64,000 nucleotides of DNA. Origin: Actinomycetota bacterium (GTDB lineage: Bacteria > Actinomycetota > Geothermincolia > Fen-727 > Anoxymicrobiaceae). Positions 5,016 through 57,639 of this stretch are shown piece by piece (position 1 is the first letter of the stretch; each line of letters opens with the position of its first letter). The stretch lies in assembly GCA_018896525.1 (NCBI GenBank), contig JAHIMR010000065.1:8205-72204 (forward strand), written 5' to 3'. Made by a program: the position numbers and the translations under genes. The notes beneath the pieces were generated by a model. The model saw nothing but the letters and a program-made list of their open reading frames with translations, was not told the DNA's origin and ran no database searches.

Positions 5016-5181
5016 CAGTACCCCGCTCCATAGATACGCTGGCATTCGAACGCCGCTGCATCCACACCGGCTGCGTTCCGCTCCCTCGAAGTACTACAGA
5101 AGTACGTCTCGGTCCCGCGCCTTGCCGGAGCGGCGCTTCGACGCTCTCTGTGCTTAACCGTATCCATGGAACGAGGCACTA
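5016..5181. repeat. family-1 MIRU/REP-like intergenic element (orientation A), filling the tmk-stop to holB-start gap
   Basis: Shares a TIR-like CCATAGATACG...CGTATCCATGG with 5 other loci. Its 3' end ...GGCACTACTA contains the tmk stop codon. Confidence 0.8.
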
Positions 5182-5853
5182 CTAACTCTCCTGCATAACT
5201 CTATTGACCTCCAAGAGTACCCGCTTGTGGACCGCCCCGGGGTTCCCCCGCGCGTCTACCAGCACAAACCGGGGATGAATCCTCTCCAGCATGTCGTAGG
5301 CATTCCGGACGTTACGGTGAAACTCCAGTGATTCCAGCTCGATTCGATCCCGCTCGAGTTCACCGGCCCTTTTCAGCCCCTCCTCCAGGGGCAGGTCCAG
5401 CATAATGGTGAGATCCGGCTCGAGTTCACCGGTAGCCCATTCGTTGAGGTTCTTTACCGCCTCCAGGCCGCAACCTCTTCCCACGCCCTGATACGCCAGT
5501 GAGCTGTCAACGTAACGGTCGGCAACAACTATTTTTTTCGCCTGGAGCGCGGGGCGCACGACATCCCTGATCTGCTGCGCCCGGTCCGCCGCGAACAGCA
5601 GCGCCTCGGTAATGGGAGCGATGTCGCCCAGGCGGGTGTCTAACAGTATCTCCCGTATCTTCTCCCCCACGGCCGTCCCGCCGGGCTCTCGCACCATCAC
5701 CACTTCCCGGCCCTCCAGGCGCAGGTGCTCGGCGATCATCTCGGCCTGCGTGGTCTTGCCACATCCCTCGGTTCCCTCGAACGTGATGAACTTTCCCTTT
5801 TTTTCCTCGAACTCCTCGGCACCTGAAAGCGATTCGGCGTCTTTTTTCATCAT
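5182..5853 (-). CDS. tmk: thymidylate kinase
   Basis: KGKFITFEGTEGCGKTTQ P-loop. The ORF track extends to 5985 but reads into a repeat element. The MMKKD start at 5853 gives the normal length. Confidence 0.8.
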   Translation of the reverse strand: MMKKDAESLSGAEEFEEKKGKFITFEGTEGCGKTTQAEMIAEHLRLEGREVVMVREPGGTAVGEKIREILLDTRLGDIAPITEALLFAADRAQQIRDVVRPALQAKKIVVADRYVDSSLAYQGVGRGCGLEAVKNLNEWATGELEPDLTIMLDLPLEEGLKRAGELERDRIELESLEFHRNVRNAYDMLERIHPRFVLVDARGNPGAVHKRVLLEVNRVMQES

Positions 5854-5894: not shown

Positions 5895-6072
5895 TGCCAA
5901 CCCTTATTTTACTACTGTTCCGTCTCATAAGTACGGTGACGCACCGAGAGCGTCGGTGCGCCGCGCCGGCAAGGCGCGCGACCAAGGCGTACTCCCTGAG
6001 TACGTCGCAGGGAGCGGAACGCAGCAGGAGCGGATGCAGCGGCGTTCGAATGCCATTGTACTTATGAGACGG
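5895..6072. repeat. family-1 element (orientation B) between tmk and the fumarase beta gene
   Basis: Near-identical modules CACCGAGAGCGTCG..GCGCCG..GGCAAGGCGCGCGAC and GAGGGAGCGGAACGCAGC..GGATGCAGCGGCGTTCGAATGCCA. Confidence 0.8.
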
Positions 6073-6076
6073 GACA

Positions 6077-6637
6077 TTACTTGTCGCGCCGGTACAGCGC
6101 GCGTTGCGCGGCGAGGTGATCGCGCCCGGCGGAGTCGATGGCCACCACCGCCGGGAAGTCGTTCAGAGAGACCCTGCGCACCGCCTCCGGCCCCAGGTCC
6201 TCCCAGGCGACCATCTCGATGCCATCCACCCGGGAGCCAAGTAGAGCGGCGACCCCCCCCACCACGGTGAAGTAGATTGCGCCGTGCTCCCGGTGCTTCG
6301 CCCCGGCCTCCTCCCCAAGGGGTCCCTTCCCCAGGACCGCGACAACGCCGCTGTCCAGGAGAAGCGGCAGGAACCGGTCCATGCGCGCCGACGTTGTGGG
6401 GCCTATCGCGGCGCACGGCCTCCCCGCGCCCGGAGGGGTAGGGGCGGCGTAGAAGACCAGTTGCCCGGCGAGGTCGAACGGAGGCTCGTCGCCGGCGGCG
6501 GCCAGCGCCTCCATCCTGGCCAGTGCCGCGTCGCGAAGCGTCAGCACGTCGCCGGTGAGCAGGACCTCATCCCCGGCGACAAGGCCCTCGAGCGCTCCCG
6601 GCTCAGGTGGCAGCGTTAGCCTCTTCAACCACCTCAC
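6077..6637 (-). CDS. fumB: class I fumarate hydratase / L(+)-tartrate dehydratase beta subunit (Fe-S hydro-lyase C-terminal domain)
   Basis: 186 aa. Similar to FumB/TtdB beta subunits (GDEVLLTGDVLTLRDAA...FYAAPTPP...VVAVLGKG). Confidence 0.65.
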   Translation of the reverse strand: MRWLKRLTLPPEPGALEGLVAGDEVLLTGDVLTLRDAALARMEALAAAGDEPPFDLAGQLVFYAAPTPPGAGRPCAAIGPTTSARMDRFLPLLLDSGVVAVLGKGPLGEEAGAKHREHGAIYFTVVGGVAALLGSRVDGIEMVAWEDLGPEAVRRVSLNDFPAVVAIDSAGRDHLAAQRALYRRDK

Positions 6638-9908: not shown

Positions 9909-12521
9909 TCATTCGGAGTTGGTTTCACATTCCCGGTTAATGCACATCTTCCGAGGCTTGCGCCCCTTCTGATCCAGCAGAATGATCGGGGCTCCGCACT
10001 CATCACAGCTTTCCCCGGATTGCTTGATCTCTCCTTCTTGCGGAAGCCGATATGAAACCCTGCACTTGGGATAGCCGTCGCACCCGGCAAACCGGTTACC
10101 GGACTTCTTTCCCTTCCTGACCCGTATCTTGCCGCCGCAATCGAGGCAGGCGCCCAGGACGGTGGGACCCTGAAGCTCCTCCAGGATCTTTGCCATTGCC
10201 TCGCCGGTGACCGAAGGCCAGGTGGGGCACTCTGGGTTAAGGCAGAACTCGAACCGCTTGCCCCCCTCCAGCTCCAGCCTGATGCGCGGGTTCCCGCACT
10301 CGGGACAGCTCTCACCTAATGCCGTTATCTCGCCTCTCTGGGGCAGCTGCAGCGTACGCTTGCAACCGGGGAAGCCGCTGCACCCGGCAAACCGGTTACC
10401 GGACCTTGAGGCCTTCCTCAGTATCATGTCCTTGCCGCAATCGGGGCAGGCGCCCAGGACGGTGGGACCCTGAAGCTCCCCCAGGATCTTTGCCATTGCC
10501 TCGCCGGTGACCGAAGGCCAGGTGGGGCACTCCGGGTTAAGGCAGAACTCGAACCGCTTGCCCCCCTCCAGCTCCAGCCTGATGCGCGGGTTCCCGCACT
10601 CGGGGCAGCTCTCACCTAATGCCGTTATCTCGCCTCTCTGGGGCAGCTGCAGCGTACGCTTGCAATCGGGGAAGCCGCTGCACCCGGCAAACCGGTTACC
10701 GGACCTTGAGGCCTTCCTCAGTATCATGTCCTTGCCGCAATCGGGGCAGGCGCCCAGGACGGCTCCCCTCATGCCTTCCCTGATCTCCCTGGAGATCTCC
10801 TCCTTGCTCTCCTCCATGGTCTCCAGGATACCTTTCAGGATCTCCCGTGACGTATCGACCACGCCTTCCAACGACTGCCGGCCCTCGACGATGGAGTCCA
10901 TGTCCTGTTCCAGCTGAGCCGTCATCTCCGGGGTGGTAACCAGGGTCGCATGCCGCTCGAGCGTACTGGCGACCGCGATGCCGGTGTCGCTGGGTTTCAA
11001 CGGGTTGCCGGACGCATACTCGCGGTCGGCCAGGCCCTGGATTATGTTATGCCGGGTCGACTTGGTCCCCAGACTCAGTTCCTCCATCTTCATTATCAGC
11101 TTGCTCTGAGTGTACCGTGCCGGCGGCTGTGTCTGCTTTCCTTCGATCTCCCTGTCGGCCACCCGGACCATGTCGCCTTCACCCAGCCCCGGCAGTTCAT
11201 CGTCCTTCTTGCGGGAGTACGGGTAGAAACGCAGGAACCCCTCATCCAGGATTACGTCCCCGCGGGCGATAAACGGCTCGCCCCCGATGTCGAGATCAAC
11301 CACGGTTGACCGGGCCAGGGCGGGCTCTGAGAGCGTGGCCATGAAGCGGCGCGCCACCAGTTCGTAGATCCTCCACTCGGGCCCCTTGAGCTTTCCCTTT
11401 GTCGCCGCCCTGGTCGGGTATATGGGAGGGTGGTCGGTGGCGCGTTTCTTGCCCCGGGTGGGCGACAGGCTTTTCTTCTTCAGCAGTTCGCCTGCCAGCG
11501 ATCCAACCACGTCGGCGCCACTGAAAGACCGCAGGACCTCGCGCAGGTCCAGCGACTCCGGGTACACCGTGTTATCCACCCTTGGGTAGCTGATAATACC
11601 CTTTGTATACAGGCCTTCGGCAATTCTCATCGCCTGGGCCGGCGTTATCTTGAGAGTTGACGCCGCCGCCAGGAACGAGGTGGTGTTAAACGGCGCCGGG
11701 GGCTTCACCTTCCTCTCCCTGGTCTTGACCGAGGTGACCTTCCCCTCTTCGGCGATATGATCGAATGCCGACCGGGCATCTTCTTCCCTGGTGAACCGCT
11801 CGGTCTTGTGTCGGGCCGTGAACCGATCACCGTCGCGTTCACACACCGCGCTGACAACCCAGAAGTCCTCCGGCACGAACGCCTTTATTTCCTGCTCCCG
11901 GTTAACCAGCAGGGTCAGCGTCGGGCTCTGTACCCGACCCGCCGACAGGAACTTCTTCCCACCCCTTTTGGTAGCCAGAGAGATGAACCTGGTAAGCACG
12001 GCGCCCCAGATAAGGTCTATGTCCTGCCTGGTCTCTCCTGCCCGCGCCAGGTTCTCCTGGAGGCATCCGGTGTTTGCGAACGCCTCCTCTATCTGGGTTT
12101 CGGTCAAAGCGGAGAAAAGGGCCCTGCTGAAAGTGACCCCGGGGTTGACTTCCTTTATGAGTTTCATGATATCGAACCCTATCAGCTCACCCTCCCGGTC
12201 GTAGTCGGTGGCTATCACCACGCTATCGGCTTTGCGGGCCACCTTCTTCAAGGTGGTTACGAGGGCCTTGTCGATCGGGATCTTCACGATCTTCGCATCG
12301 AGTAGTTCCCCTACTTCCACCTGCCGCCACTTCTGGTACTCCTCGGGGAAATCGACCTCCAGGATGTGCCCGCGCATGCCTATGCACTTAACATCCTCTC
12401 CGTTCTCGTTGAAGGTGTAGAGGGTGCTCTTGGGCCCGCCCTCACGTTTCGCCTTGCCACCGGAGAGGATATCGGCGATGCGCCTGGCTGTCTGGTTTTT
12501 CTCGGTTACTATCAGCTTCAT
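9909..12521 (-). CDS. topA: DNA topoisomerase I with three C-terminal zinc-ribbon modules
   Basis: 870 aa with TOPRIM start MKLIVTEKNQTARRIADIL. The catalytic Tyr region is present. The C-terminus has 3x repeated CPDCGKDMILRKASRSGNRFAGCSGFP.CKRT modules. Confidence 0.9.
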   Translation of the reverse strand: MKLIVTEKNQTARRIADILSGGKAKREGGPKSTLYTFNENGEDVKCIGMRGHILEVDFPEEYQKWRQVEVGELLDAKIVKIPIDKALVTTLKKVARKADSVVIATDYDREGELIGFDIMKLIKEVNPGVTFSRALFSALTETQIEEAFANTGCLQENLARAGETRQDIDLIWGAVLTRFISLATKRGGKKFLSAGRVQSPTLTLLVNREQEIKAFVPEDFWVVSAVCERDGDRFTARHKTERFTREEDARSAFDHIAEEGKVTSVKTRERKVKPPAPFNTTSFLAAASTLKITPAQAMRIAEGLYTKGIISYPRVDNTVYPESLDLREVLRSFSGADVVGSLAGELLKKKSLSPTRGKKRATDHPPIYPTRAATKGKLKGPEWRIYELVARRFMATLSEPALARSTVVDLDIGGEPFIARGDVILDEGFLRFYPYSRKKDDELPGLGEGDMVRVADREIEGKQTQPPARYTQSKLIMKMEELSLGTKSTRHNIIQGLADREYASGNPLKPSDTGIAVASTLERHATLVTTPEMTAQLEQDMDSIVEGRQSLEGVVDTSREILKGILETMEESKEEISREIREGMRGAVLGACPDCGKDMILRKASRSGNRFAGCSGFPDCKRTLQLPQRGEITALGESCPECGNPRIRLELEGGKRFEFCLNPECPTWPSVTGEAMAKILGELQGPTVLGACPDCGKDMILRKASRSGNRFAGCSGFPGCKRTLQLPQRGEITALGESCPECGNPRIRLELEGGKRFEFCLNPECPTWPSVTGEAMAKILEELQGPTVLGACLDCGGKIRVRKGKKSGNRFAGCDGYPKCRVSYRLPQEGEIKQSGESCDECGAPIILLDQKGRKPRKMCINRECETNSE
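10200..10800. repeat. in-frame roughly 300-bp tandem duplication inside topA (zinc-ribbon module)
   Basis: Identical plus-frame ORF peptides at 10207 and 10507. The two units are near-identical at nucleotide level. Confidence 0.8.
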
Positions 12522-14658: not shown

Positions 14659-14861
14659 TAAATCCTCCCTCTTCCAGTAGTCATCTTAATTCAACAGTAA
14701 AATATGGTGATTATATTGAGCAATCGTTGAATCCGCAAGTGCCCTGCGAAAAGCGTGCTCAGACGCGGCTACGATTTCGCTCCCACTTTTGCCGTCGCTG
14801 CGCTCTCTGATAGACTAAACTCGAAAATACTGGTGATTACTACTCCCCCCTCTGGAGGTGC

Positions 14862-15125
14862 TAGTGCCCCGTTCCATAGATATGGTCGCGCACCGAGAGC
14901 GTCGAAGCGCCGCTCCGGCAAGGCGCGTGACTGAGGCGTACTCCTGTAGTACGCCGAGGGAGCGGAACGCAGCCGGAGTGGATGCAGCGGCGTTCGAATG
15001 CCAGCGTATTTATGGAACGGGGTACCTATACGTACTCCTGGAGTACGTCGAGGGAGCGGAACGCAGCCGGTGTGGATGCAGCGGCGTTCGAATGCCAGCG
15101 TATCTATGGAGCGGGGTGCTACTAA
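14862..15125. repeat. family-1 element, about 1.5 tandem copies (orientation B), in the divergent region between hppA and the aminotransferase
   Basis: Full unit roughly 14866-15025, then a second half-module roughly 15026-15125. Confidence 0.8.
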
Positions 15126-16281
15126 TTTGATATCGGACAGGTCCTCTCGCCTCCCTCCATTCTACGTTATGGAAATCCTGGAGAAAGCGCACGAGTTGGA
15201 GCGGGAAGGCGCCGAGGTCGTACACATGGAGGTGGGGGAGCCGGACTTCGACACCCCGGAGCCGATCAGGGAAGCGGCAATCCGCGCGATCCATCAGGGG
15301 ATGACCCGGTACACCCACAGCCAGGGCATACCCTCCCTTCGCGAGGCGATCGCGAAAGAGTACCAGGACCGGTACGGGGTAACCGTTTCCCCGGACAACA
15401 TCATCGTGACCAGTGGCACCTCCCCCGCGATGATCCTGATATTCGGCGCCCTGCTCAACCCCGCGGAGGAGATACTCCTGTCCAACCCCTGCTACGCGTG
15501 TTACCCCAACATCGTGGAGTTCATCGGTGGCACCGTGCGTTACGTGGACGTCTATGAGGAGGATGGCTTCAACTTCCGGTGCGACATGGTTCGCGAGCAA
15601 CTGGGGCCGGCGGTGAAAGGGGTCATGATCAACTCCCCTTCCAACCCTACCGGTATCGTGCTCTCGGAAGGCGAGATAAGCGAACTGGTCGAGGCGGTGG
15701 GTGAGGAAGCGTATATCATCTCCGACGAGATCTACCACGGGTTGGTCTACGAGGGCCGGGAGCACTCGGTCCTGGAGTATACCGACAGGTGCTTCGTGCT
15801 GAACGGGTTCAGTAAGCTATACGCTATGACCGGGTGGCGCCTCGGGTACGTCATCTGCCCACCGGAGTTCGTCCGCGCCATGCAGAAGATCCAGCAGAAC
15901 ATCCTGATCTGCGCCAACTCGTTCGTACAGTGGGCCGGCATCGCCGCCCTCGAAGAAACCGCCACCTACGTCCGGGAGATGGTCGAGACGTACGACCGCC
16001 GCCGGAAGTTCCTGCTCGAACGCCTGAAAGCAATGGGGTTCGGGATAGAGGTCGAGCCGACCGGCGCTTTCTACATCTTCGCCAACGCCAGCCGGTTCAC
16101 CACCGACACTTACCGCTTCTGCCTTGACGTCCTCGAGACCGCTCACCTGGCGATCACGCCGGGGATTGACTTCGGGAGCGGGGGCGAGGGGTACGTACGG
16201 TTCTCCTACGCCAACTCACTTGCCAATATCGAGGAAGGTACGGAGAGACTCAAGCGGTTTCTGGACGAACGGGAGGGGTAG
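15106..16281 (+). CDS. class I/II pyridoxal-phosphate aminotransferase (aspartate aminotransferase-like)
   Basis: GEPDFDTP, SNPCYACYPN, INSPSNPTG and SKLYAMTGWRLGY motifs. Start uncertain: the ORF begins inside the repeat, and the first ATG consistent with AAT N-termini is at 15106 within the repeat's terminal module. Confidence 0.75.
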   Translation: MERGATNLISDRSSRLPPFYVMEILEKAHELEREGAEVVHMEVGEPDFDTPEPIREAAIRAIHQGMTRYTHSQGIPSLREAIAKEYQDRYGVTVSPDNIIVTSGTSPAMILIFGALLNPAEEILLSNPCYACYPNIVEFIGGTVRYVDVYEEDGFNFRCDMVREQLGPAVKGVMINSPSNPTGIVLSEGEISELVEAVGEEAYIISDEIYHGLVYEGREHSVLEYTDRCFVLNGFSKLYAMTGWRLGYVICPPEFVRAMQKIQQNILICANSFVQWAGIAALEETATYVREMVETYDRRRKFLLERLKAMGFGIEVEPTGAFYIFANASRFTTDTYRFCLDVLETAHLAITPGIDFGSGGEGYVRFSYANSLANIEEGTERLKRFLDEREG

Positions 16282-17057: not shown

Positions 17058-17696
17058 ATGGAACTGGGAGGCGTTTTAGAGTACGCGAACGGTGTGCTGG
17101 AGCAGGAGAGCAAGGCGCGGGAGCAGGGGCTGAAGCTATCCCGGGAGTGCATAAGGTTCTCGGCGAACTCCATCCGCGCGATCCACCGCGGTGACCGTGA
17201 CCAGTCGATAGACCTCCGTCGGAAGGCCGCCGACTCGGTTTCGGGAGCGCAAACCGCGCTGGCTCCTTACCCCCGCATCTACCACGCTGGCTTCCTCCAG
17301 GATGCCGAGAAGGAGTACGCTGAAGCCGCGATCACCTTCGCCCTTATCCAGGGTGACCCCCTGCCCATGTCCGAAGACCTGGGGGTTGACATCGCCCCCT
17401 ACCTGAACGGGCTCGGGGAGGCGGCGGGCGAAATGCGGCGCCACGTGCTTGACCTCATACGCAACAACCAGCTGGACAGGGGCGAGGAGATCCTTGGCAT
17501 CATGGACGACATCTACTTCCTCCTCGCCTCCGTCGACTACCCCTCCGCCATGACCGGTGGCCTGCGCAGGACCAACGACATGGTGCGTGGCGTCCTGGAG
17601 CGCACACGGGGAGACCTGACAACGGCAATCCGCCGTAACAGCCTGGAGCGGACCATCAAGAACCTTGAAGAGAGGCTCTCCTCCGACGACGACTAG
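17058..17696 (+). CDS. translin-family protein (archaeal-type translin/TRAX)
   Basis: LKLSRECIRFSANSIRAIHRGD resembles the PF01997 N-terminus. AGGAG RBS before the ATG at 17058. Upstream in-frame ORF residues are a spurious extension. Confidence 0.55.
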   Translation: MELGGVLEYANGVLEQESKAREQGLKLSRECIRFSANSIRAIHRGDRDQSIDLRRKAADSVSGAQTALAPYPRIYHAGFLQDAEKEYAEAAITFALIQGDPLPMSEDLGVDIAPYLNGLGEAAGEMRRHVLDLIRNNQLDRGEEILGIMDDIYFLLASVDYPSAMTGGLRRTNDMVRGVLERTRGDLTTAIRRNSLERTIKNLEERLSSDDD

Positions 17697-18073
17697 CAGC
17701 GCCCCCGGGGGGGAGAAATGCGCCAATGGTGCCAGGCACCATTGGCGCATTTTGTGGTTTTTGTTAATTAGCGAGGGAAGGGTCACGCCCCGGGCTGTTG
17801 CATAATTGGGTTTATCTCCCTTGTAGAGTCGGCATCTTGCCGGCATCGGTACCGCCTTTTGCTCGGGAGGGGAAGGGTTTTGCCCCTGGGCTGTTGCATA
17901 ACAGACACCGTTTGCGTGAGGGTTCCAACGGCACCAGCCCGGGGATGGCGTATCTTGTCTGACCACCGCTTGTGCACACGGGAGGGGACAGGCCCCTTCG
18001 GTGCATTATGGAGATGTGTTTGAGTGAAAAGACGAACGGCACCCGCGGGGCCAGCCCCCGTTTGGGTGGCGTG
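17697..18073. repeat. family-2 conserved roughly 300-380 bp intergenic element, copy 1
   Basis: About 80-85% identical to 47578-47869. Has 3x GCTGTTGCATAA/T motifs, CAACGGCACCAGCCCGGGGATGGCGT and GCATTATGGAGAT. Ends CCCGTTTGGGTGGCGTGTTA on the sensor gene stop codon. Confidence 0.75.
17720..17762 (+). terminator. intrinsic terminator (GCGCCAATGGTGCC-AGGC-ACCATTGGCGC followed by a T-run)
   Basis: Perfect 12-bp stem followed by ATTTTGTGGTTTTTGTT, downstream of the translin gene. Forms the first module of the family-2 repeat. Confidence 0.6.
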
Positions 18074-20746
18074 TTAAAGGATGTCGCAGACCATCACGGT
18101 CATGTCGTCTCTGGCGTCGCCGTTACAGAACTCGAGTACGTTCTCAATCAAGGCTCCGGCGAACTTGTCCGAGGGCAGTTCCTGGTGCGAGGTGACGAAC
18201 CTGTCCAACCTCTTTAGCCCGTAGAGCTTTCCTTTACTGTTCTGCGCGTCGATCAGCCCGTCGGTAAACAGAACCAGCCGCTCCCCGGAGTTCAACTTGC
18301 GCTTTCTCACATCGAGGTCGGCACGCGAGAATATTCCCAGGATTGATTTGTCCTCTGATTGCAGTGTGACCGGCGTCCTGTCCTCGGCGCCGATGCACAG
18401 GGGTTCCTCGTGCCCGGCGTTAGTGTAGCTCAGTGTCATCGTTGGAAGGTCTAGAACGCCGAAGAAAACGGTGACGAAGTTGTCGGAGCGATTGGTCATG
18501 TACAGGTTCTGGTTAACGTGCTCCATGATCTTCAGTATCTTGTCTTGCTCACGCGCCTCCACCCGGAGGGCGCTCATGGCCATCGTGGCGAACAGTGCCG
18601 CGCCGACCCCCGAGCCGGACGCGTCGCCCACTACCAGGAACACCTTGTCCCCGTGCCACCAGTAGTCGTACCAGTCCCCGCCGACAACCTTCGCCTGCTG
18701 CTGAACGGCGACCACGTGAACCCCGCCGGCCAATAGAGGGTCGCGGGGAAGAAGACTGCTCTGAATCCCCGAGGCGATATCCATCTCCCTTTGCATCAGG
18801 GCAAACTTCTCGAGCTCCTTCTGCTCGCTGGTATCGCGATAGATCACCACCACGTTCTCGACGTTCCCGTCAGGGTCGTATATCGCGGCGAGCGTCCCTC
18901 CCGCGGGAATCCTCCTCCCGGACCTGGTAACTATCTCGTCCTCCCGGTAGATGACCCGCTCGCCGGCAAACATCTTTCTCATGCCGAAATCGTCCTCCGG
19001 CTCCTCGGTCAAGCCGAACAACACCTCGTAGTAACTGCGGCCCCGCGCCTCCTCCTGGCTCCAACCGGTCATGAACTCGACGGCGGGGTTCGCCAGGACC
19101 ACCCTCATTTCACTATCGACCACCAGAACAGCGTCGGGGGTAGCCTTCAGCACCGCCTCGCTCTTCTCGCGCTCGCGGTACAACCTCTCATTGACCTCCG
19201 CGTTCTGGACGGCCAACTGCTGCTGAAAGAGCTTGTCCTGAAGCTTCCTGTTCTGTATAGCGAGCGCGGCCTGCCGGCCCAGCGCGTCGGCGAGGTCAAT
19301 ATCGTCCGCCGAGAACCTGAAATCCGCGCTGGTGGACTCCAGACTTACCAGGGCAATGAGCTCGTCTTCAAACGACAGGGGAACCTGCAGATACGTTTTC
19401 ACCCCGGGGCGGAAAACTCTCGACTCCCGGTCCGACTCGTCCTCCACTCTCTCGGCAAGCACCGGGCGCCTCTCCCGCATGGCACGGGCGGTGGTCTGAC
19501 CCAGTTCATCCATGGGCATGTGGAACTGGCTCAGCATCCAGACCTGGAGCGTACTGCGCCCGTACCCCGCCATGAACGTCAACGTGTTCGTCTCGGGCTC
19601 GAAGAAGAAAAGCGAGCAGCGCTCAACACCGAGCGCGATGGCGGTCTTCTCAGTTATGGTTTCCATCAGCTCGTCCAGGTCACGGCTTTCGACGGATGCC
19701 TGGGCAATCTCGGTGAGGACGATCGCCTGGCGCCTCCGCTTCTGTTCCTCGCGGAACAGTTCCGCGTTCTTTATCGCGATGCCCGCCTGGGGACCGAGTG
19801 TGGTCAGCATCGTCATGTCGAGTTCGGTATAGCTCTTGGGGGTCGTGTCGTATAGCTCGATTACACCGATGGGTTCCTCGTTGACCGTGATCGGTATCGA
19901 GAGAGCCGACCTTATCTTGCGCCCGGCGGCGGCCCAGGGCAGCTCGAAGCCAATGAGCTCGGCGTCCCTGACCAGCACATACTCGTTCCTGCGCATGGCG
20001 ACATCGGCGATGCTACGGTCTACCCCGATCTCCTCCTTCTGGACCCAGGAACGCGCGAGGCCCATTTCCGCCTTCGCACGCAGATACTTCCTGTCCGCGT
20101 CCAGCAGCAGAATCGAGCCCATCTTCACCCGCATCAGGGATGTCGCCACCTCCAGAATGTAACCCAGGACCTTCTCCAGGTCGACGGTCGAAACGATAGC
20201 CTGGCCCAGGATGGAAAGCGCCTTGAACTCCGTCAGTTGCCTCTCGACGGTGGTCAACTCCTCTTTCTCGAACGCATTCCGCATGTAATGCCTGACCAGC
20301 TTGTTGAACCGGTCCCGGGTGTTGGCAAGTTCGACCCACGCCTCCGCGGAGTACCCTTTCCCCAGCAGGCGGCCGGTTATCTTCCTCCAGGTGTACGTTT
20401 CGCCGTCGTTGAACACACTGATTACATCTCTGAGTTTGATGCCCTGTCCCGCGCGCTGGCGCCCGACATCTTCGGACATGCTCTTGATGTACTTGACTGG
20501 AAAATCGTCCGCCTCGAAGTAGTCAAGGTAGATCTGAATGAAGTCGCGAAACGATTGCCTGACGTCCGCGATCGTATCGGCTGGAAGGGACTGGTACTCG
20601 GGCAAGGTCGCCTCTATCAAGCGATCGATCTCCTTTACCAGCGCGTCTTTCTCCTCTCGCAGGTAACCGGCGACCTCGCGCCTGAGACTTCTCACTTCCG
20701 GGCTTATCTTGCCCTTTTCCGCCCCGTATTCACTGTAATCACTCAT
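18074..20746 (-). CDS. multi-sensor (GAF/PAS) PP2C-type serine phosphatase (SpoIIE/RsbU-like)
   Basis: 890 aa. The C-terminus has a PP2C/SpoIIE signature (GDWYDYW...VVGDASGSGVGAALFATMAMS...FTDGL). GAF- and PAS-like segments lie upstream. Confidence 0.75.
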   Translation of the reverse strand: MSDYSEYGAEKGKISPEVRSLRREVAGYLREEKDALVKEIDRLIEATLPEYQSLPADTIADVRQSFRDFIQIYLDYFEADDFPVKYIKSMSEDVGRQRAGQGIKLRDVISVFNDGETYTWRKITGRLLGKGYSAEAWVELANTRDRFNKLVRHYMRNAFEKEELTTVERQLTEFKALSILGQAIVSTVDLEKVLGYILEVATSLMRVKMGSILLLDADRKYLRAKAEMGLARSWVQKEEIGVDRSIADVAMRRNEYVLVRDAELIGFELPWAAAGRKIRSALSIPITVNEEPIGVIELYDTTPKSYTELDMTMLTTLGPQAGIAIKNAELFREEQKRRRQAIVLTEIAQASVESRDLDELMETITEKTAIALGVERCSLFFFEPETNTLTFMAGYGRSTLQVWMLSQFHMPMDELGQTTARAMRERRPVLAERVEDESDRESRVFRPGVKTYLQVPLSFEDELIALVSLESTSADFRFSADDIDLADALGRQAALAIQNRKLQDKLFQQQLAVQNAEVNERLYREREKSEAVLKATPDAVLVVDSEMRVVLANPAVEFMTGWSQEEARGRSYYEVLFGLTEEPEDDFGMRKMFAGERVIYREDEIVTRSGRRIPAGGTLAAIYDPDGNVENVVVIYRDTSEQKELEKFALMQREMDIASGIQSSLLPRDPLLAGGVHVVAVQQQAKVVGGDWYDYWWHGDKVFLVVGDASGSGVGAALFATMAMSALRVEAREQDKILKIMEHVNQNLYMTNRSDNFVTVFFGVLDLPTMTLSYTNAGHEEPLCIGAEDRTPVTLQSEDKSILGIFSRADLDVRKRKLNSGERLVLFTDGLIDAQNSKGKLYGLKRLDRFVTSHQELPSDKFAGALIENVLEFCNGDARDDMTVMVCDIL

Positions 20747-23049: not shown

Positions 23050-23345
23050 CTGCCAACCGGTGGGGTCAGTGCCTTCAAGCGGCGGCGATAAGGCCGCCAG
23101 GTGGGGTCTGGTGTTAGAGCGGTGTTGATACGGCCACCAGGTGGGGTCAGGTGTTAGATAGGTGTCAGGAATCAAAGCGTTGTGGCAAGAACACCTGAAC
23201 CCTTTCTGTCAGACAAGCAGTGGTAAGACAGCGTTATGGCAAGAACACCTGACCCCTTCCTCGCAACCAAACGGTGGTAAGACAAAGTTACGGCCAGAAG
23301 GCCTGACCCCTCATGTCAGACAAGCGGCGGTCAGACAAGAACGCC
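23050..23345. repeat. family-3 hairpin repeat array (3x CCRCCAGGTGGGGTCAGGTG arms and 3x GTTRYGGCAAGAACACCTGACCCC arms)
   Basis: GGGGTCAGGTGTT and AACACCTGACCCC are exact reverse complements, each repeated 3 times. Lies between two convergent PaaK-like genes. Confidence 0.7.
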
Positions 23346-23422
23346 AACCGCGGGCATGTGACGTTAGATTCTTTGCTTAGACACATGCCCCACAATGCAT
23401 ATGCCCAGGGGCATGACCTCCC

Positions 23423-24922
23423 TCAGAACTCCCTTTTGTCCACCACCCAGTCCGCCTTGAGCCCGGTGCGCTCGAAGAGGCGGTTCTCCACCTTTTTCGG
23501 CTTCTCGATCTCTATCCGGTCCGGGGATACTTCGGCATCCATCTTCAACTGCCTGGTGACCCCGACCCTGACCATCTCCTCGTCTGCGCCCGGCTGCAGG
23601 GATACGTAGACCAGGACCCTGTCGCGGCTGGCCTGGTCCCCCTCGTCCTCCCTGGTGATTATGACCTGAAACGACTCCACCCCCTCAACCCGCCGGAGCG
23701 CGTTCTGGAACTCTGTGAGCAGTACCCGAACGCCTTTTATCCTTGTGAAATCCCTCCTGGCCCTGCCTATGGGGGGCCGGAGGACCGGCATGGTAAGCCC
23801 GCAGTGCGAGCATTTCTCCCAGACGACTCCCCCAGCGATGAGGTCGCCCATCCAGTAGCGCAGAAGGACCGTGCCCCTCCAGTCGATGTGGCTGAACGCC
23901 AGCACGCCGGGCTCGCCCCAGGGCACCGGTTCCCTGGTATCGGGATCCAGCACCTCCCAGAAGTAAAACTCCGGGTTAAGGTGGATGCCGGTCCTTTCGC
24001 CACACTCAAAGAACGCGGCCTTGAGCTCGGTGGAACCGTAGCCCTCCACTATCTCGACGTCGGGCGACCCTATCTTCTCGAACTGTCCCTTCAGCTTGTC
24101 CCGGTACTCGTCGGAGAGCGGCTCCCCCGCCAGCACCGCGATCTTAACCGGGTCCGGCTTCCTGGCTTCTCCACCCTCAATCATCTCGATGGCGGTCTTC
24201 AACCAGTACGTCATGTAGGAGGGGATCGCAATGTACATGTCAAACGGCATGCTGCCCGCTATCCGTACCTGCCGCTCGGTGGGTATCGCCCTTCCCCCGC
24301 AGGTGTGGAATATCGCCCCGCCGTTATCCACCGTGAACTCCGCGAATATCACCTGGAAGAAGGCCAGGTGGGGAAGGGCGGAGTACATGTTAAGAGCCCT
24401 CATCGTCGGCTCCCAGCCGAACAGATACATCATCCCGGCGATATAGGGGACCACGCTCTTGAGGTCATAGTTGGTGTAACAAGACTGAACCGGATCGCCA
24501 GTGGTCCCCCCGCTGGCGTGAAAATGTATCGGCAGCCACTCCCCGGCCCCGGTTTGCCTGACGCGTTCCTCGAACGAGCGCGGCTTCCCGTAGAGGTCTC
24601 TCAGGTACCTGGTGTTCAGAGTCTGCCAGGTGTACCATAGCTTCTTCTTCCTGCTGATCTCCTCGACATCGTACGGTGAATCCTCGTTCCCGGGCTGCAG
24701 GACAAACGCTTTCTGGTCCTCCATGATGTCCTTTTTCCCGGTAATCGGTATCTTCCTGAAGTCATCGTAAGAGTTCAGCCTGTCGGGGTCGATGTTGTTC
24801 TCGCGGAACAGCTTCCGGTAGTAGGGATGGTAGGGATAGACGTAATCCTTGATGTACTTGAACATCTTTGCCAGGGAGTACTCTCTCTGCTCCTCCGGGG
24901 TCCACTGATATGAGATAGCCAT
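23423..24922 (-). CDS. phenylacetate-CoA ligase-like adenylate-forming enzyme (second paralogue)
   Basis: PaaK-family motifs (YYRKLFRENNIDPDRLNSYDDFRKIPITGKKD; SGGTTGDP). ATG at 24922 is preceded by a GGAGGA RBS, so the ORF-track start at 24940 is unlikely. Confidence 0.7.
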   Translation of the reverse strand: MAISYQWTPEEQREYSLAKMFKYIKDYVYPYHPYYRKLFRENNIDPDRLNSYDDFRKIPITGKKDIMEDQKAFVLQPGNEDSPYDVEEISRKKKLWYTWQTLNTRYLRDLYGKPRSFEERVRQTGAGEWLPIHFHASGGTTGDPVQSCYTNYDLKSVVPYIAGMMYLFGWEPTMRALNMYSALPHLAFFQVIFAEFTVDNGGAIFHTCGGRAIPTERQVRIAGSMPFDMYIAIPSYMTYWLKTAIEMIEGGEARKPDPVKIAVLAGEPLSDEYRDKLKGQFEKIGSPDVEIVEGYGSTELKAAFFECGERTGIHLNPEFYFWEVLDPDTREPVPWGEPGVLAFSHIDWRGTVLLRYWMGDLIAGGVVWEKCSHCGLTMPVLRPPIGRARRDFTRIKGVRVLLTEFQNALRRVEGVESFQVIITREDEGDQASRDRVLVYVSLQPGADEEMVRVGVTRQLKMDAEVSPDRIEIEKPKKVENRLFERTGLKADWVVDKREF

Positions 24923-24974
24923 AGCATGTCCTCCTCGCATCGCTACCGCCGGCTGGAAACACAGTAACCGTTCC

Positions 24975-26904: not shown

Positions 26905-26995
26905 CGGTTGGCAAGAAAAGACCGCCACCAAGTGGGGTCAGCGCCTTATAGCGGTGGCCGGCATTAAACGTTATGGCGAGAAGACCCCTCCCTTC
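26905..26995. repeat. family-3-like motif copy (CCACCAAGTGGGGTCAGCGCC ... GTTATGGCGAGAAGACCCC)
   Basis: Matches motifs of the 23.05-23.35 kb array. Overlaps the 3' end of the brxA-like gene. Confidence 0.5.
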
Positions 26996-29807: not shown

Positions 29808-30028
29808 GCGCTACCTTCCGCTCGAATCATGAGCAACGGCACCATCTCGGGATAGGCGTGGGCTTTCTGGTCGAACTGCTCCTGGGCAAGGAGGTTAAGG
29901 CGACAATTGCGGACCTTGGGCAGCCAGACCCGGCAGGTCGTCTCGCCCCAAAGCGTCTGGGCTTCGATGACCTGACAAATCTGCCCGTGATCCATGCTGA
30001 AGTACCAGCCGCTGTCCACGTGACTCAC
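29804..30028 (-). CDS. small ORF (74 aa), translationally coupled between the 351-aa gene and pglZ, hypothetical
   Basis: GTGA overlap with the upstream gene stop and ATGA overlap with the pglZ start. It fills the gap exactly. No similarity recognised. Confidence 0.4.
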   Translation of the reverse strand: MSHVDSGWYFSMDHGQICQVIEAQTLWGETTCRVWLPKVRNCRLNLLAQEQFDQKAHAYPEMVPLLMIRAEGSA

Positions 30029-31080
30029 TCCGGTATCGCGAAGTCGTTGTGGACGCCCACCGTAGCCAGCTCTATGCAGCCATTTGGCAATTCCCAGAAG
30101 TGAAGATGGTATTCGTGATCTATGTCGCGTCTCGATGCCTTGGCGTTGTCGGAGGACCGCCTCCGCGGCGGGTCGCTGCCGCCTGGACTGGTTCTCAGGG
30201 GGTGGATCGACCGCAAGCTCTGTTTGTCGATAGCTTCACAGACGGCACGCAGTGCCCTGTCCGGGAACCCAGGATCAGCGTCCCTGCTACATTGCCTGAT
30301 GGCACCCTCGAAATGGTCACCGATGACCATACCACCAATGTTGTCCCAATTCGGCTCCTCATGCCTTTCGATACGGGACTTGTAGAGTCGGATGCGAATC
30401 GCGATCTCTATACCTGCAATATCGGTTGAAGCGGTCAATACCGCAGATTCGTCGATGCAGGTGAGGAGTCCCCTGAAATCATCGCAGGCGAGAACATCAC
30501 CTTCAAAATATTCAGGTGGGATCGGGACGTCCGACAACTGGTCATCCCTTTCGTGCTCGATCTCATGAACAAGGGCTCGAACGCGAATCGTGCGTTCCGG
30601 ACAATGCTTGAGGATAAGGGCGTTCTGTAGGATGTCCCCTTGACAATGCTTCCGGAGGATGGCCAGGAGGAGGATGCAACGAGCCAGATCCGTTTGCAAG
30701 CCATGCCCGGTGCAGAACTGCATCACATCGGGACTAGTAGAGAGGTCCTCGGACAAAGTGTCACGGACGCGGTAGTAGGTTTCGAACGACGGCGTGTGCT
30801 GAAGCAGTCTATTGATTACTGCCGCCACTGTGTTGATGTCATACTCTTGGATACCGTGGTGTGAGAAGAGTAGGCGCAGGTGTTCTCGGACCGGAAATAG
30901 CTCATCGGTAGACAGAGCCTCGGAGGCATACTCGCTCATACACAGCGCGATCCACGGCTCGTCGAGCAATTGGGCCCAGTCGAGAATCCGCTCCACGTAG
31001 CCATGAACGTCCTCGGCTGAACCGTGAGCCTGCGGAACGGCAAGCACTCCGGCATCAATGGTGACAGTGGCGCTGCTCAT
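30025..31080 (-). CDS. hypothetical protein (351 aa), partner of the upstream ABC ATPase
   Basis: No recognisable motifs. The acidic HEIEHERDD segment was noted. Sits 2 nt downstream of the ATPase stop, in the slot where BrxHII would be. Confidence 0.5.
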   Translation of the reverse strand: MSSATVTIDAGVLAVPQAHGSAEDVHGYVERILDWAQLLDEPWIALCMSEYASEALSTDELFPVREHLRLLFSHHGIQEYDINTVAAVINRLLQHTPSFETYYRVRDTLSEDLSTSPDVMQFCTGHGLQTDLARCILLLAILRKHCQGDILQNALILKHCPERTIRVRALVHEIEHERDDQLSDVPIPPEYFEGDVLACDDFRGLLTCIDESAVLTASTDIAGIEIAIRIRLYKSRIERHEEPNWDNIGGMVIGDHFEGAIRQCSRDADPGFPDRALRAVCEAIDKQSLRSIHPLRTSPGGSDPPRRRSSDNAKASRRDIDHEYHLHFWELPNGCIELATVGVHNDFAIPE

Positions 31081-31082
31081 CG

Positions 31083-32990
31083 CTACTTACCCCTCTGCTT
31101 CTTCCGCTTCGCGGCGGCGGCTCTAAGGATAGCCTCTGCCTCACGCTGGTTCTGATCGAAGAAGCCATCTGGCCAATCGAGGATGGCACCGAACTCGTTT
31201 ACGCCGACTTTGCGGAAGACCGAACCGTCATCATCCCGCTCCACGAAGTAGAGACGGACCGCCTCAAGCCAGGGATTGGTCGTTGCAGCCGCGGCAGTTC
31301 GGAAGCGAATGCGATTCACAAGGTATTCGCTGTGTGTTTCGAGAACACATTGCTTCCCAAGCTGTGTCATGGAGAGAAAGAAATCTGCAAGGAGTGTCTG
31401 CACTCTGGGGTGCAGGTGTATTTCAGGCTGCTCGAAGATCAGCGTCGTATCAGGGTCAGCAAGCAAGCTGGAGACAAGGATAGGAAGAACCTGACTCACT
31501 CCAACCCCAACGTGAGTCAGGTCGTGGTACCGCGTCCCGCCCGTAATGCTGACGACGAGTTCGTGGCCAAACTTGCCTTTGTCCTGGCTTTGGATACTTT
31601 CGGCGACGCCAAGGTACTGGAGCCAATCAACGACTGCCGCTTCAAGCGTCCTCGTTGTTGGTGTTGGCACCACCTCATCACCGATAAATGCGGAAGTCGG
31701 GATATAACGGATGGGGCGATTCTTGTGCAGTTCAAGAACAGCTGCGGTGTGCTCTCCCTTTAGGCCGACATCCGAAGGATCGACTGTCGGGGAAAGCGGA
31801 TAGAGGGGCTTGGGCTCATCCCGAAGCGGGCCAAGGTAACGTACCGAGTTGGTAAAGAATTGATCGGTATACCAGCATGCTTCGGTTATACTGTTTGGAG
31901 ATGGGTAGAGAATGACATCGAGGTCCTCTCCCTGTTCTTTACACATAGCGTCATTAACCAAGCTCTCGAGGTTCGGATATTCCGCAATCTGGCGATGGAA
32001 CTCCATCCTGGCACGAGACGATATTCGCCCGAACGCATCGAGGAATGTTTCCATGAAAACGGCAGACTCGTCGAATAGAGGCCGCTGGCTGAAGGCATTC
32101 TCAAGCGATTCTCGAAGGTCAGACCCTTCCATTTTTCTGGCTATATCCAAAATGCAATCAATAACAGGTTTTGGCACGATGCCTTCGCGGCCAACAAAGA
32201 GACGACGCGGCATTCTGCGCGGGCTATCTCCGATTAGGGTGCTGACGATGAACCGAGTGGTTTCCGGCACTAGATCGACGCCGAGTGCAATCCGCTCGGG
32301 AAGGAAATGCCGTAGGATACAGCCGATAGGCTTGGCCGATACCATATCTTCGTGAATCTCCGCCATCGATGCATCATCGAGATCAACCTCATACTGCATA
32401 CTGGCGCGTAGGATGTCGTCGCCGGCTTCGGTGGCTTCAGTCCATCTATGCTTTGATGTCGTATCAGTTGTCGTTGCGCGACGAATCGAAATGGAGTATG
32501 GGCGGTCACTGCCCTCGGCGTCGCGAGTTATAGAAGATACAACCGACGAGAACAAACGAGGTTGGAGCTGAGTAATTTCTCTCTGTGTGCCCGAATCATC
32601 AGTGTCAAAGCTGATTTCACACGACACGGATGATATGGCATACCTTTGCCTGCCGTAGAATGTGGGAGCACGGCGGGATGCCGCAACTCGCATGCCTGCC
32701 ACCTTGGGATCATAGACAGGCTTGCATGTCCAGCCTATGACAATCTGGCTCGCATCGCTTTCAGCACTCTTGAGATCGTCAAACTGCCCCAGTTTGGCGA
32801 GTGCCCCGTTGAGAACCACAGAGCGCGAACTGACCTTGTTTGCCAAAGTCTGAGCGACGAGCAAGATGGATTGCAGCAACGTGCTCTTACCGCTGCTGTT
32901 CGCACCTGCGAATATTGTCAGCGGTGCGAATTCCAACTCGGTCTCATTGCGGACCGATTTGAAGTTGAACACCTTCCACTTGGTGATCAT
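31083..32990 (-). CDS. ABC-type ATPase of the AAA_15/AAA_21 (OLD / PARIS-AriA / Septu-PtuA-like) family with DUF3696-like C-terminus
   Basis: 635 aa. Walker A FAGANSSGKSTLLQ, C-terminal LIFEQPEIHLHPRVQ (Walker B plus H-loop signature of this family) and WPDGFFDQ tail. Confidence 0.7.
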   Translation of the reverse strand: MITKWKVFNFKSVRNETELEFAPLTIFAGANSSGKSTLLQSILLVAQTLANKVSSRSVVLNGALAKLGQFDDLKSAESDASQIVIGWTCKPVYDPKVAGMRVAASRRAPTFYGRQRYAISSVSCEISFDTDDSGTQREITQLQPRLFSSVVSSITRDAEGSDRPYSISIRRATTTDTTSKHRWTEATEAGDDILRASMQYEVDLDDASMAEIHEDMVSAKPIGCILRHFLPERIALGVDLVPETTRFIVSTLIGDSPRRMPRRLFVGREGIVPKPVIDCILDIARKMEGSDLRESLENAFSQRPLFDESAVFMETFLDAFGRISSRARMEFHRQIAEYPNLESLVNDAMCKEQGEDLDVILYPSPNSITEACWYTDQFFTNSVRYLGPLRDEPKPLYPLSPTVDPSDVGLKGEHTAAVLELHKNRPIRYIPTSAFIGDEVVPTPTTRTLEAAVVDWLQYLGVAESIQSQDKGKFGHELVVSITGGTRYHDLTHVGVGVSQVLPILVSSLLADPDTTLIFEQPEIHLHPRVQTLLADFFLSMTQLGKQCVLETHSEYLVNRIRFRTAAAATTNPWLEAVRLYFVERDDDGSVFRKVGVNEFGAILDWPDGFFDQNQREAEAILRAAAAKRKKQRGK

Positions 32991-38096: not shown

Positions 38097-38184
38097 GTGT
38101 GGATCTTCCCGCCTTGTTCACTGAACAAATTCCGGTACCTTTTTCAGGCTTGTCCATTGCGCGAGTCTCATCTGCCGCCGGCAC

Positions 38185-38250
38185 GACGCTCTTCACTTGG
38201 TCACCCAAGAACTGACCAAATGGTCTCAAGTTGGTCACTAACTTGGTCAC
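38185..38250. promoter_or_regulatory. direct repeats of TTGGTCAC (3 copies, plus the related TGACCAA) upstream of the RloC-like gene: candidate operator/internal promoter
   Basis: TTGGTCACCCAAGAACTGACCAAATGGTCTCAAGTTGGTCACTAACTTGGTCAC in the 150-bp gap between the AlbA_2 regulator stop and the RloC-like start. Confidence 0.35.
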
Positions 38251-39812: not shown

Positions 39813-39849
39813 TGCCGCAATCCGTGTCTATCCGTGGTCATCCGTGGTT

Positions 39850-42800: not shown

Positions 42801-43578
42801 GCAATCGCTCGGCAACCACGAACTTGACATCCTTACGGGCGATGAGAATCTGCTCGAAGCGGTCCTTTACCCGGCGAACGCTGTCTGCCACAAAGGAAAA
42901 CCGGGGGCTGTCGAAGATAGCCTCCTGAACGCCAGCTATGAAGCGGAAGCGCAGGTCCTTGCAAACCTCGCCGATCTCGCGGAGGAAGTTCAGGTCGAGA
43001 ATGAGTTCCTGGTCCTTGCGGGTGCGCAAGTAATCAAGCAGTTCATCCACCACCAAGAGCAGGCCGTGTTCGGGAAACTCCTGGTGGAAGGCGGTCATCA
43101 TCTCCTCGAACGAGCGCTTGTTGCCGGACACCTCGGAGGCTGATGGGAAGCCATAGCTCACGCCCATCGCGGCCAAGTGCTCCTCCAGTTCGGCTATGAG
43201 GATGTCTCGAAGGGACATGGTCGTGGCCCCGATCTCAGTGCGCACAACCTTGAATCGGCCGGCTATTATCTCCGCGGCATCCGCCACATCCTGGTTGTTG
43301 AGGCAAGGGGCAAACTCTGGATTCTCGGCAAGCCCGGAGAGCACCGACATGAGGTGCGACTTGCCGGTGCCGTAGTTGCCGACCACCAGCAGGCCTTTGT
43401 TGTTGGTGGGATGCTCGAACTGCAACTGGGGTATGACAAGACCAACCAGCTTTTCCGCCATCTCATCGGAAATGACATAGGTTTCGATAAGCCGCCGGGC
43501 CTCAGTCGCTTCGTCGGCGTCTCGCAGTTGGATCACGGACTCGATAGGTTCAAACTGGATCAGGTCACCGTATTTCAT
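39850..43578 (-). CDS. brxC: BREX ATPase BrxC/PglY
   Basis: 1242 aa. N-terminus [24 protein letters not shown]...[20 protein letters not shown] is the hallmark BrxC start with Walker A. Confidence 0.85.
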
Positions 43579-43630
43579 CGCGTCTGCTCCTCCGCTCCCT
43601 TGTATCGGAATCTGCTGGAATCTGTTATCT

Positions 43631-44110
43631 TCACTTCGTCACCTCCGGGCTTGCCACCAGAAAATCACGCACCGGGTATCGTCTGTACTCCGGGTGAGCC
43701 GGGGCGGCATAGGTCAAAGAACCGTCAACGATGGAGCCGTTCCATGCGGCAACCACAGTCTTATTACGCGAGAGTCCCTGGAGCAGCCGAAGCGGGTCCT
43801 GCTTCAGACCAACGTCGAACATGACTTCTATGTTGTCGAGCAGGATCATCTCGTCATCGCCATTATCGACGATCTCTCGAAGAAGACGCGGCAGCCGCAA
43901 GGCTCGCTGGCGCTCGGTCAAATCAAGCATTCGGCGGGATATCTCGAGATTGACATTCACCAGGGGCGCACCCATGCGATCCCGTACATCCAAGAGAGCA
44001 GTGGTTTTTCCCGCGCCCGCCAGCGCTATGACCAGTATCAGCCGGTGATAGAGTTCGGCGGTCTGCTTGACCTTTCGTACAATCTGATCAGCAAGGGGCT
44101 CCGCCATCAC
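43631..44110 (-). CDS. brxF: BREX type 3 small P-loop protein BrxF
   Basis: 159 aa with Walker [15 protein letters not shown], immediately upstream of brxC as in type 3 BREX. Confidence 0.6.
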
Positions 44111-48220: not shown

Positions 48221-48315
48221 TACTGATCACCAGCTTAGATGTTCCAACACCGCTTGCTTGTGTGCGTTTGCTCGGGCTCCGCTTGTTCACCGTAGCACCT
48301 CTTGTCTCACCAAAT

Positions 48316-57630: not shown

Positions 57631-57639
57631 TCTTAGTAC

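Follow-up and report, generated by a model that had tools for sequence, protein, structure and literature searches.

The BOX elements of Streptococcus pneumoniae are arranged as boxA-boxB(n)-boxC, and the RIME and ERIC-type repeats are modular in a similar way. In Escherichia coli, Pseudomonas and Stenotrophomonas, repetitive extragenic palindromic sequences (REPs) and bacterial interspersed mosaic elements (BIMEs) combine short GC-rich hairpins and conserved motifs in mosaic intergenic elements, which sit after open reading frames (ORFs), between convergent or co-directional genes, and often a few nucleotides from a stop codon. Among the roles proposed for REPs are termination, protection of the 3′ end, and slower termination of translation if the REP lies within 15 nt of the stop codon (PMC3733652; PMC12306157); according to the summary of Liang et al. 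2015 in PMC12306157, E. coli REPs at most 15 nt from the stop codon cause ribosomes to stall there. In this study, we analysed a stretch of 64,000 nt from an Actinomycetota bacterium (assembly GCA_018896525.1, contig JAHIMR010000065.1, positions 8,205 to 72,204 of the forward strand), hereafter the window, whose positions are used throughout. Our subject is a family of intergenic repeats, family 2, and in particular the two members that an earlier note on this DNA had singled out, copies A and B. The nearest known kinds are REP/BIME and BOX-type modular repeats. Family 2 is a new repeat family of a known kind, distinct from REP/BIME proper, and none has been described earlier in this lineage; judged by title and abstract, none of the papers found that mention Geothermincolia or Anoxymicrobiaceae deals with repeats.

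We consider it likely that copies A and B are members of a dispersed mosaic family of intergenic repeats, built of co-oriented hairpin cassettes and residing in an uncultured organism near Candidatus Geothermincolia / Anoxymicrobiaceae. The likeness of the two copies stems from repeated spread or homogenisation among copies and not from purifying selection on one vertically inherited RNA. The nearest named relatives of RpoA and of the sensor protein encoded beside copy A are Actinomycetota labelled Candidatus Geothermincolia, Anoxymicrobiaceae or Anoxymicrobium. Copy A (17697-18073, plus strand, cassette order T-G-P-G-N-M2) exactly fills the spacer from the stop codon of a plus-strand gene (17694-17696) to the stop codon (18074-18076, minus strand) of a gene encoding a SpoIIE-type sensor phosphatase of 890 amino acids. 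For the plus-strand gene (17058-17696), which had been labelled translin, the contig annotation records no Pfam match. Copy B (47578-47869, plus strand, cassette order P-T-G-N-M2) fills in the same exact manner the spacer from a plus-strand gene for a product of 272 amino acids (stop codon at 47575-47577) to rplQ (stop codon at 47870-47872, minus strand). Both copies therefore lie between convergent genes, and the genes flanking A are unrelated to those flanking B.

The earlier note had reported two related noncoding stretches, and this observation is upheld at 17697-18073 and 47578-47869, together with its long conserved blocks: the window contains CGGCATCTTGCCGGCATCGG (20 nt) and CAACGGCACCAGCCCGGGGATGGCGT (26 nt) exactly two times each, and neither turned up in any of 100 shuffles. 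Its estimate of 80-85% identity over about 300 nt was too high, because blastn gives 78% identity (E = 3e-38) over the last ~200 nt. The 5′ parts of the two copies are rearranged and not colinear. Each copy had been said to begin with a terminator hairpin, which is true of A; copy B opens instead with a GTAG hairpin cassette, because the order of the 5′ cassettes is swapped relative to A. For the same reason, a global alignment of A and B needs large gaps to match the terminator hairpins and the CTCCCT-GTAG hairpins. A motif that had been counted three times per copy, GGGCTGTTGCATAA, is found in its exact form twice in A and once in B, and the remaining occurrences are degenerate. Both copies do end, as claimed, in ...CCCGTTTGGGTGGCG-NG-TTA, in which TTA is the complement of the stop codon of the convergent minus-strand gene.

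Six recurrent cassettes were defined when the copies of the window were read side by side with the related ones described below. The T cassette is a perfect palindrome of 14-18 bp with the apex GGTGCC-N-GGCACC, an A-rich 5′ flank and a T-run on the 3′ side, and the P cassette is CTCCCTyGTAG followed by the hairpin GCCGGCA-NNN-TGCCGGC. The G cassette is GAGGGGTCAcGCCCCGGGCTGTTGCATAA, in some cases closed by GGGGCGTG, and the N cassette reads ..GTTGCAACGGCAaCAGCCCGGGGATGGCGT-TCTTGTCTGAC-CGCTTGT... The two M cassettes, M1 (GGGGTCAGGCCTTCTAGCC...GCTGACCCCACCTGGTGGC) and M2 (GGGGTCAGGCCC...GGGCCAGACCCCGTTTGGGTGGCG), are domains of roughly 60-80 nt with a closing stem of 8-12 bp. Within a copy all cassettes are co-oriented, and their number and order vary among copies. 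In copy A, the T cassette (17715-17763) is an 18-bp hairpin with the apex GGTGCCAGGCACC, followed by UUUUGUGGUUUUUG. It is followed by a first G cassette (17771-17815; GAGGGAAGGGTCACGCCCCGGGCTGTTGCATAA...), the P cassette (17816-17861; CTCCCTTGTAG and then the GC hairpin GTCGGCA-TCT-TGCCGGC, GTAG-tagged and REP-like), a second G cassette in the form that lacks the closing stem (17862-17909), the N cassette (17910-17979; CAACGGCACCAGCCCGGGGATGGCGT..TCTTGTCTGAC..CGCTTGT), and the M2 cassette (17980-18071), whose long-range stem pairs GGGGACAGGCCCC with GGGGCCAGCCCCC and whose terminal GTTTGGGTGGCG lies 2 nt from the stop codon. In copy B, the P cassette (47578-47611; CTCCCTCGTAG and the hairpin GCCGGCA-TCT-TGCCGGC) stands directly 3′ of the TAA of the plus-strand gene, and the T cassette (47612-47656), the G cassette (47662-47707; a stem of CCACGCCC and GGGGUGUGG closing the loop GGGCUGUUGCAUAA), the N cassette (47708-47779) and the M2 cassette (47780-47867) follow. 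The stem of this M2 cassette is formed by GGGGUCAGGCCC and GGGCCAGACCCC, and its end lies 2 nt from the rplQ stop codon. All of these cassettes lie on the plus strand. Small ORFs within the element were considered and rejected, since indels of 9, 28 and 28 nt between copies break the frame and the motif spacings differ by single bases.

The element had been reported as present twice, and the window contains two more partial copies, both on the minus strand. Copy C (23050-23422) begins directly 3′ of the TGA of the gene at 23423-24940 and comprises a G cassette (23422-23382), an N cassette (23365-23314), the head of an M1 cassette (23313-23287), about two tandem units of 54 nt (23286-23176) and repeats of the M1 tail (23168-23050). 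Copy D (26922-26992) is a solitary M1 cassette with the termini GGGGTC...GACCCC. Comparison of all collected copies with the window by blast revealed no copies there besides A to D. A metagenome scan with one N-cassette pattern returned eight contigs from the JGI sample series Ga0180013-15, which also contains contigs identical to the window. These eight contigs, whose loci are given L numbers here, hold nine additional distinct loci (one of them recovered twice, on separate contigs), whose flanks have no counterpart in the window. In total, 13 loci were recovered from the population and three orthologous versions from relatives, and together they form a dispersed mosaic. Locus L010 has the order P-T-G-N-M2 of copy B, to which it is 88-90% identical across ~290 nt, and L011a has the order G-P-T-G-N-M2 with a tail 85.6% identical to that of copy A. 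Locus L009 consists of three tandem N-M2-type units of ~141 nt each, and several other metagenome loci are G-N-M1 forms. A scan of a genome collection with the 21-mer GGCACCAGCCCGGGGATGGCG returned three chance matches in unrelated metagenome-assembled genomes (MAGs), with no similarity past 22 nt, and scans of viral contigs with P and M2 patterns matched nothing. In other assemblies, contigs end 42-51 nt past the stop codon of rplQ or of the sensor gene, end exactly at the stop codon, or start inside the element (L003-L005, L014, L027 and L028), which is the expected behaviour of an assembly at a multi-copy repeat. These broken contigs come from independent assemblies of the organism and its relatives, and the repeats fragment MAG assemblies.

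Two sister strains, L017 and L026, were each compared with the window at one site, and four-fold degenerate sites were used as the neutral proxy. At the site downstream of rplQ, L017 differs from the window at 4.7% of four-fold sites (28/601), and the element is 78.2% identical over 225 columns, with 67 gap columns; the coding DNA of the two is ~98% identical. At the sensor locus, L026 differs at 4.5% of four-fold sites (35/773), and the element is 76.4% identical over 309 columns, with 73 gap columns. The rate at which the element diverges is thus about five times that of four-fold sites. The gaps correspond in size to cassettes: the P cassette and part of G are missing from L017, and the window has an extra G at the sensor locus. 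The stems of the T cassettes differ at several positions between copies and between orthologues, with both arms altered together. In L029, a more distant relative (76% for the sensor protein), the sensor site holds only a 95-nt unit of N tail and M1, in the same orientation, and the element at the locus of copy C is absent from both L028 and L029. The paralogues cited above (B and L010, 88-90%; the tails of A and L011a, 85.6%) are more alike than the positional orthologues (76.4-78.2%). Fast divergence, gain and loss of cassettes, and likeness among paralogues together indicate turnover or concerted evolution by homogenisation, and not purifying selection. This pattern is the opposite of that expected for a conserved noncoding RNA (ncRNA).

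Both strands of the copies fold far below the energies of shuffled sequences (z = -3.2 to -6.1), and the z-scores are equally strong on the two strands, as expected of DNA rich in palindromes. Compensatory change supports base pairs in the closing stem of M2 only. For ten aligned M2 units, RNAalifold and manual reading alike give a 12-bp closing stem and a 4-bp inner helix. Cells of the closing stem are paired in 93.8% of cases, compared with 85.5% in shuffles, and one pair occurs as AU:3, CG:3 and UA:2, another as GC:7 and UA:2. The covariation score is 0.199 vs. 0.059, a value attained in 0 of 500 shuffles, and sliding the stem partners abolishes the signal. An attempt to assign the strand through G-U vs. 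A-C wobbles in this stem found no asymmetry: wobbles valid on the plus strand only and on the minus strand only are about equal. Therefore, the M2 constraint assigns no strand, and DNA hairpins or inverted termini are possible targets as well as RNA. The check for compensatory substitutions that the earlier note had suggested thus succeeds for the M2 closing stem, but the pattern is also expected of DNA hairpins or inverted termini. The Rfam search that it had also suggested gave no family at the gathering score in the whole window, and permissive scans of A, B and C gave only sub-threshold hairpin matches.

The proposal that the element supplies a terminator is borne out in form by one cassette, a terminator-type hairpin. 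The T cassette of A was flagged by a consensus terminator scan, with 18 pairs followed by GTGGTTTTTG. That of B, a 15-bp hairpin followed by UUUUU (GUUUUUCC), is visible in the fold and was not flagged by the scan. The U-run lies on the plus strand of the element and is poor on the opposite strand. In form, therefore, the T cassette is a putative intrinsic (Rho-independent) terminator for the element's plus strand, and in copy A it is predicted to act for the plus-strand gene.

Copies for which both neighbours are resolved sit at the 3′ ends of genes, mostly between convergent genes, and fill the whole spacer. The 5′ end of the element is usually 0-20 nt past the stop codon of the co-oriented gene, and the M end is 1-10 nt from the complement of the stop codon of the convergent gene. 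Among co-directional neighbours, the element is sense to both genes in L009 and antisense to both in L010, so that its orientation with respect to transcription is not fixed. The element begins variously with T, with P, or with a complete or partial G; its 3′ end is in every case formed by an M cassette that terminates in ..GGTGGCGG. The stop codon that abuts the M end is TAA in seven of the eight securely called genes of this population (those at A, B, L010, L011a, L011b, L014 and L016b), and the eighth, at L013a, is TAG. The stop codon at L013b is also TAA, but its ORF is short and uncertain and is left outside the eight. Against a background of 16 TAA among 71 long ORFs (22%), the binomial tail for 7/8 is ~2e-4, and it is ~3e-3 for 5/6, that is, after removal of the two copies that prompted the idea. 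The stop codons at the 5′ end of the element are a mixture.

The earlier suggestion that the element supplies the stop codon fails for rplQ and was rejected as a general rule. In relatives whose RpoA is 82% identical and which carry no element, rplQ still ends in GAATTCGTCTAA with the same TAA, and thus this TAA predates the element. For the sensor gene it may hold: this gene ends in ..VCDIP with TAG (L028, L029) or TGA (L026) in relatives and in ..VCDIL with TAA in the window, where the last codon and the stop codon are derived, along with a remodelled junction. The excess of TAA may come from a preference for insertion next to TAA, from copying that spills over into the stop codon, or from selection for TAA ahead of strong structure.

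In its short GC-rich hairpins, conserved motifs, mosaic build and position after ORFs, family 2 is like the REPs and BIMEs. Taken strictly, this likeness would make the GTAG-tagged P cassette a REP that is cut and moved as single-stranded DNA by a REP-associated tyrosine transposase (RAYT, a Y1 tyrosine transposase), with the other cassettes as BIME-like linkers. GTAG is invariant in 9/9 P cassettes, directly 5′ of a 7-bp GC hairpin (GCCGGCA-NNN-TGCCGGC) in a short stem-loop of about 17-23 nt, and the P cassette alone satisfies the definition of the GTAG REP super-family, a palindrome of some 20-40 nt carrying an unpaired GTAG at one end. Placement downstream of ORFs, between convergent or unidirectional genes, agrees with that of GTAG REPs, and REP termini that touch or provide stop codons have been described (PMC3733652). 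However, an element has at most one P cassette, always co-oriented with the other cassettes. There are no inverted REP doublets, and the BIME hallmark of several REPs in alternating orientation is not found in family 2. Copies C and D and loci L009, L012, L013a, L016b and L017 have no P cassette at all. In contrast to REP/BIME, family 2 also has among its parts a complete terminator cassette and domains of 60-80 nt closed by a stem, and its host belongs to the Actinobacteria, a phylum from which GTAG REPs were not reported in a 2013 survey (PMC3733652). A tblastn search of about 300 kb for a Y1 transposase, with E. coli RAYT and IS200 TnpA queries, found nothing below E = 2, which is a weak negative. 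We regard the strict REP/BIME explanation as unlikely. With the BOX elements, family 2 has in common a small set of cassette types, a variable internal number that includes tandem runs (three units of ~141 nt in L009 and the 54-nt units of copy C), strong folding and an intergenic location. The two are not related in sequence, and family 2 differs in that only its 3′ end, the M cassette, is constant, that its 5′ end is variable, and that its set contains a terminator cassette.

Three readings had been offered in the earlier note, namely a structured ncRNA, a 3′ untranslated region (UTR) element, and a miniature inverted-repeat transposable element (MITE), and the repeat or mobile-element reading comes closest. 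Further copies at unrelated loci, cassettes that vary between sister strains and the presence of a terminator-type hairpin cassette speak for it. As classical or nested MITEs, the cassettes or the composite would be deletion derivatives of an insertion sequence (IS), with terminal inverted repeats and target duplications, moved by the transposase of that IS. M1 and M2 do have inverted termini of 8-12 bp (GGGGTCAG...CTGACCCC and GGGGTCAGGCCC...GGGCCAGACCCC), a solitary M1 exists in copy D, and another repeat family of the same genome, family 1, acts as a MITE whose TA(A)G targets are duplicated and whose sites are filled in one strain and empty in another. MITEs, family 1 among them, are like family 2 small, noncoding, multi-copy, strain-variable and located on stop codons. 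However, the inverted ends and the target duplication that are clear in family 1 are both lacking in family 2 when the element is taken as a whole, and no direct duplications flank the composites or single cassettes at A, B, C, D or the inspected locus copies. At the locus of copy C, the element replaces the spacer of relatives and does not interrupt it, although the spacer may be saturated at that divergence. The MITE explanation in this classical form seems to us quite improbable. A structured cis-acting 3′-UTR element or small RNA under selection, the whole ~300-nt unit being one functional RNA, would account for folding below shuffled energies, for the covarying M2 stem and for the conserved blocks of 20-26 nt. 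It conflicts with the variable order and number of cassettes, with the occurrence of both orientations relative to neighbouring transcription, with orthologues that evolve about five times faster than four-fold sites, with wobbles that give no strand signal, with z-scores equal on both strands, as palindromic DNA predicts, and with the lack of an Rfam match. We find this explanation very improbable; the original observation is real but was over-read, and the conservation reflects a repeat family and not a functional ncRNA locus. The earlier note had added that its view would fall if there were no further copies and the similarity came from a duplication that includes the flanks. Further copies exist, and the idea that one intergenic region was recently copied by segmental duplication, for which the similarity of A and B is the sole argument, was rejected, since the flanks are unrelated, 13 loci lie at unrelated positions, and the identity is 78% with rearranged cassettes; we give it practically no chance. 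Integron attC sites, which have R″/R′ cores (RYYYAAC ... GTTRRRY) at the 3′ end of promoterless cassette genes, were also rejected: the cores are inconsistent, GTTRRRY fitting B and L014 and not A, L010 or L013b, and the neighbours are housekeeping genes in convergent pairs.

For a dispersed family of co-oriented hairpin cassettes, several points weigh on the other side. No mobilising enzyme was found in the DNA searched, and family 2 yielded no filled/empty pair with a clean junction and defined ends, the sole empty sites being in relatives too diverged to define junctions. The abundance of the family is judged from about 170 kb of DNA and from contig breaks, and the assignment of L009-L016 to the window's genome is inferred from shared samples and repeats. 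The conserved blocks and covarying stems show some constraint, which could include a function at the level of RNA, and the excess divergence of orthologues could include independent insertions at a hot spot and not gene conversion.

If the dispersed-family explanation is correct, recombination or gene conversion between paralogous copies, or an enzyme acting in trans, would spread or overwrite them, and one arm of a palindrome may serve to correct the other. The T cassette would terminate transcription of the upstream gene that has the same orientation. Transcripts of the gene on the opposite strand would carry the hairpins of M, N and G as a structured 3′ UTR, starting 1-10 nt past the stop codon and within the ribosome footprint, and these stop-proximal hairpins could shield the 3′ end or make termination slower, as do the stop-proximal REPs of E. 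coli. The roles proposed for REPs would fit this anatomy.

Family 1 consists of units of ~94 nt, often in tandem or inverted pairs, which behave as a MITE. They are found at 5017-5202, 5912-6081, 14855-15127, 50727-51055, 57635-57797 and 61622-61809 of the window and at 5243-5372 of L017. Their inverted ends are approximately GCCyCGyTCCATAGATA and TATCTATGGAACGAGGC. Filled and empty sites are seen between the window and the sister strain L017, the family inserts directly on stop codons, and two of three polymorphic sites show a clear duplication of the TA(A)G target. At the rplO|secY junction of L017, the rplO stop codon has changed from TGA to TAG, with rplO three codons shorter, and the secY start codon has changed from TTG to GTG. 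A bolder proposal is that both repeat families are targeted to stop codons, and that a dedicated mechanism inserts or copies hairpin cassettes next to stops. In family 1, the duplicated TA(A)G target is the neighbour's stop codon, and in family 2 the constant ...GGTGGCGG end lies 1-10 nt from a stop codon. We offer this proposal as speculation, doubtful for the present.

Several other features of the window deserve mention. A candidate small RNA (23056-22943, minus strand) has a promoter-like site, TTGGCA-17-TATAAT (23056 to 23028; 11/12 matches), followed by a long hairpin of ~80 nt (23021 to 22943). The hairpin is kept in L028, L029 and L021 with G-U/A-U and C-G/U-G variants, it always adjoins AMP-binding (acyl-CoA-synthetase-like) genes, and it has no Rfam match. 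In the window, its -35 box lies inside the last cassette of copy C. The spacer between rpoA and rplQ (48221-48315; 10937-11111 in L017) contains an 80-nt unit, GCTGGTGAGACAAGAGGTGCTACGG...ACAAGCAAGCGGTGTTGGAACATCTAA, which is single in the window and a tandem pair in L017; the short motifs GAGACAAGA and ACAAGCGG of this unit also occur in the N cassette read in antisense. Within a long coding ORF on the minus strand (9909-12521) lies a 300-nt tandem repeat (10134-10762) with two full copies, 98% identical, and the start of a third. Finally, the region of ~30000-44000 has a GC content of 51-58%, compared with ~60% elsewhere, and encodes a BrxC/PglY-like protein of 1242 amino acids together with AAA_13/SMC-like and helix-turn-helix (HTH) proteins; it is probably a BREX-type defence island.

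For annotation, our findings mean that conserved-looking intergenic blocks in this lineage are repeat cassettes and not ncRNA genes, and for assembly, the repeats account for the breaks just past rplQ and the sensor gene in several assemblies of this organism. As regards transcription, the repeats appear from their sequence to supply the terminators of convergent genes. In evolutionary terms, the family is a clear example of intergenic DNA whose turnover is ~5 times that of synonymous sites, in strains whose coding DNA is ~98% identical. The main points of interest are this very fast turnover of cassettes and the anchoring at stop codons with its excess of TAA. If the anchoring is mechanistic, the family would provide a system outside E. 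coli in which to ask whether stop-proximal hairpins modulate termination. Furthermore, if stop codons are indeed targeted, these repeats would be self-propagating 3′-end cassettes that install terminators and stop-proximal structures and thereby tune termination and translation genome-wide.

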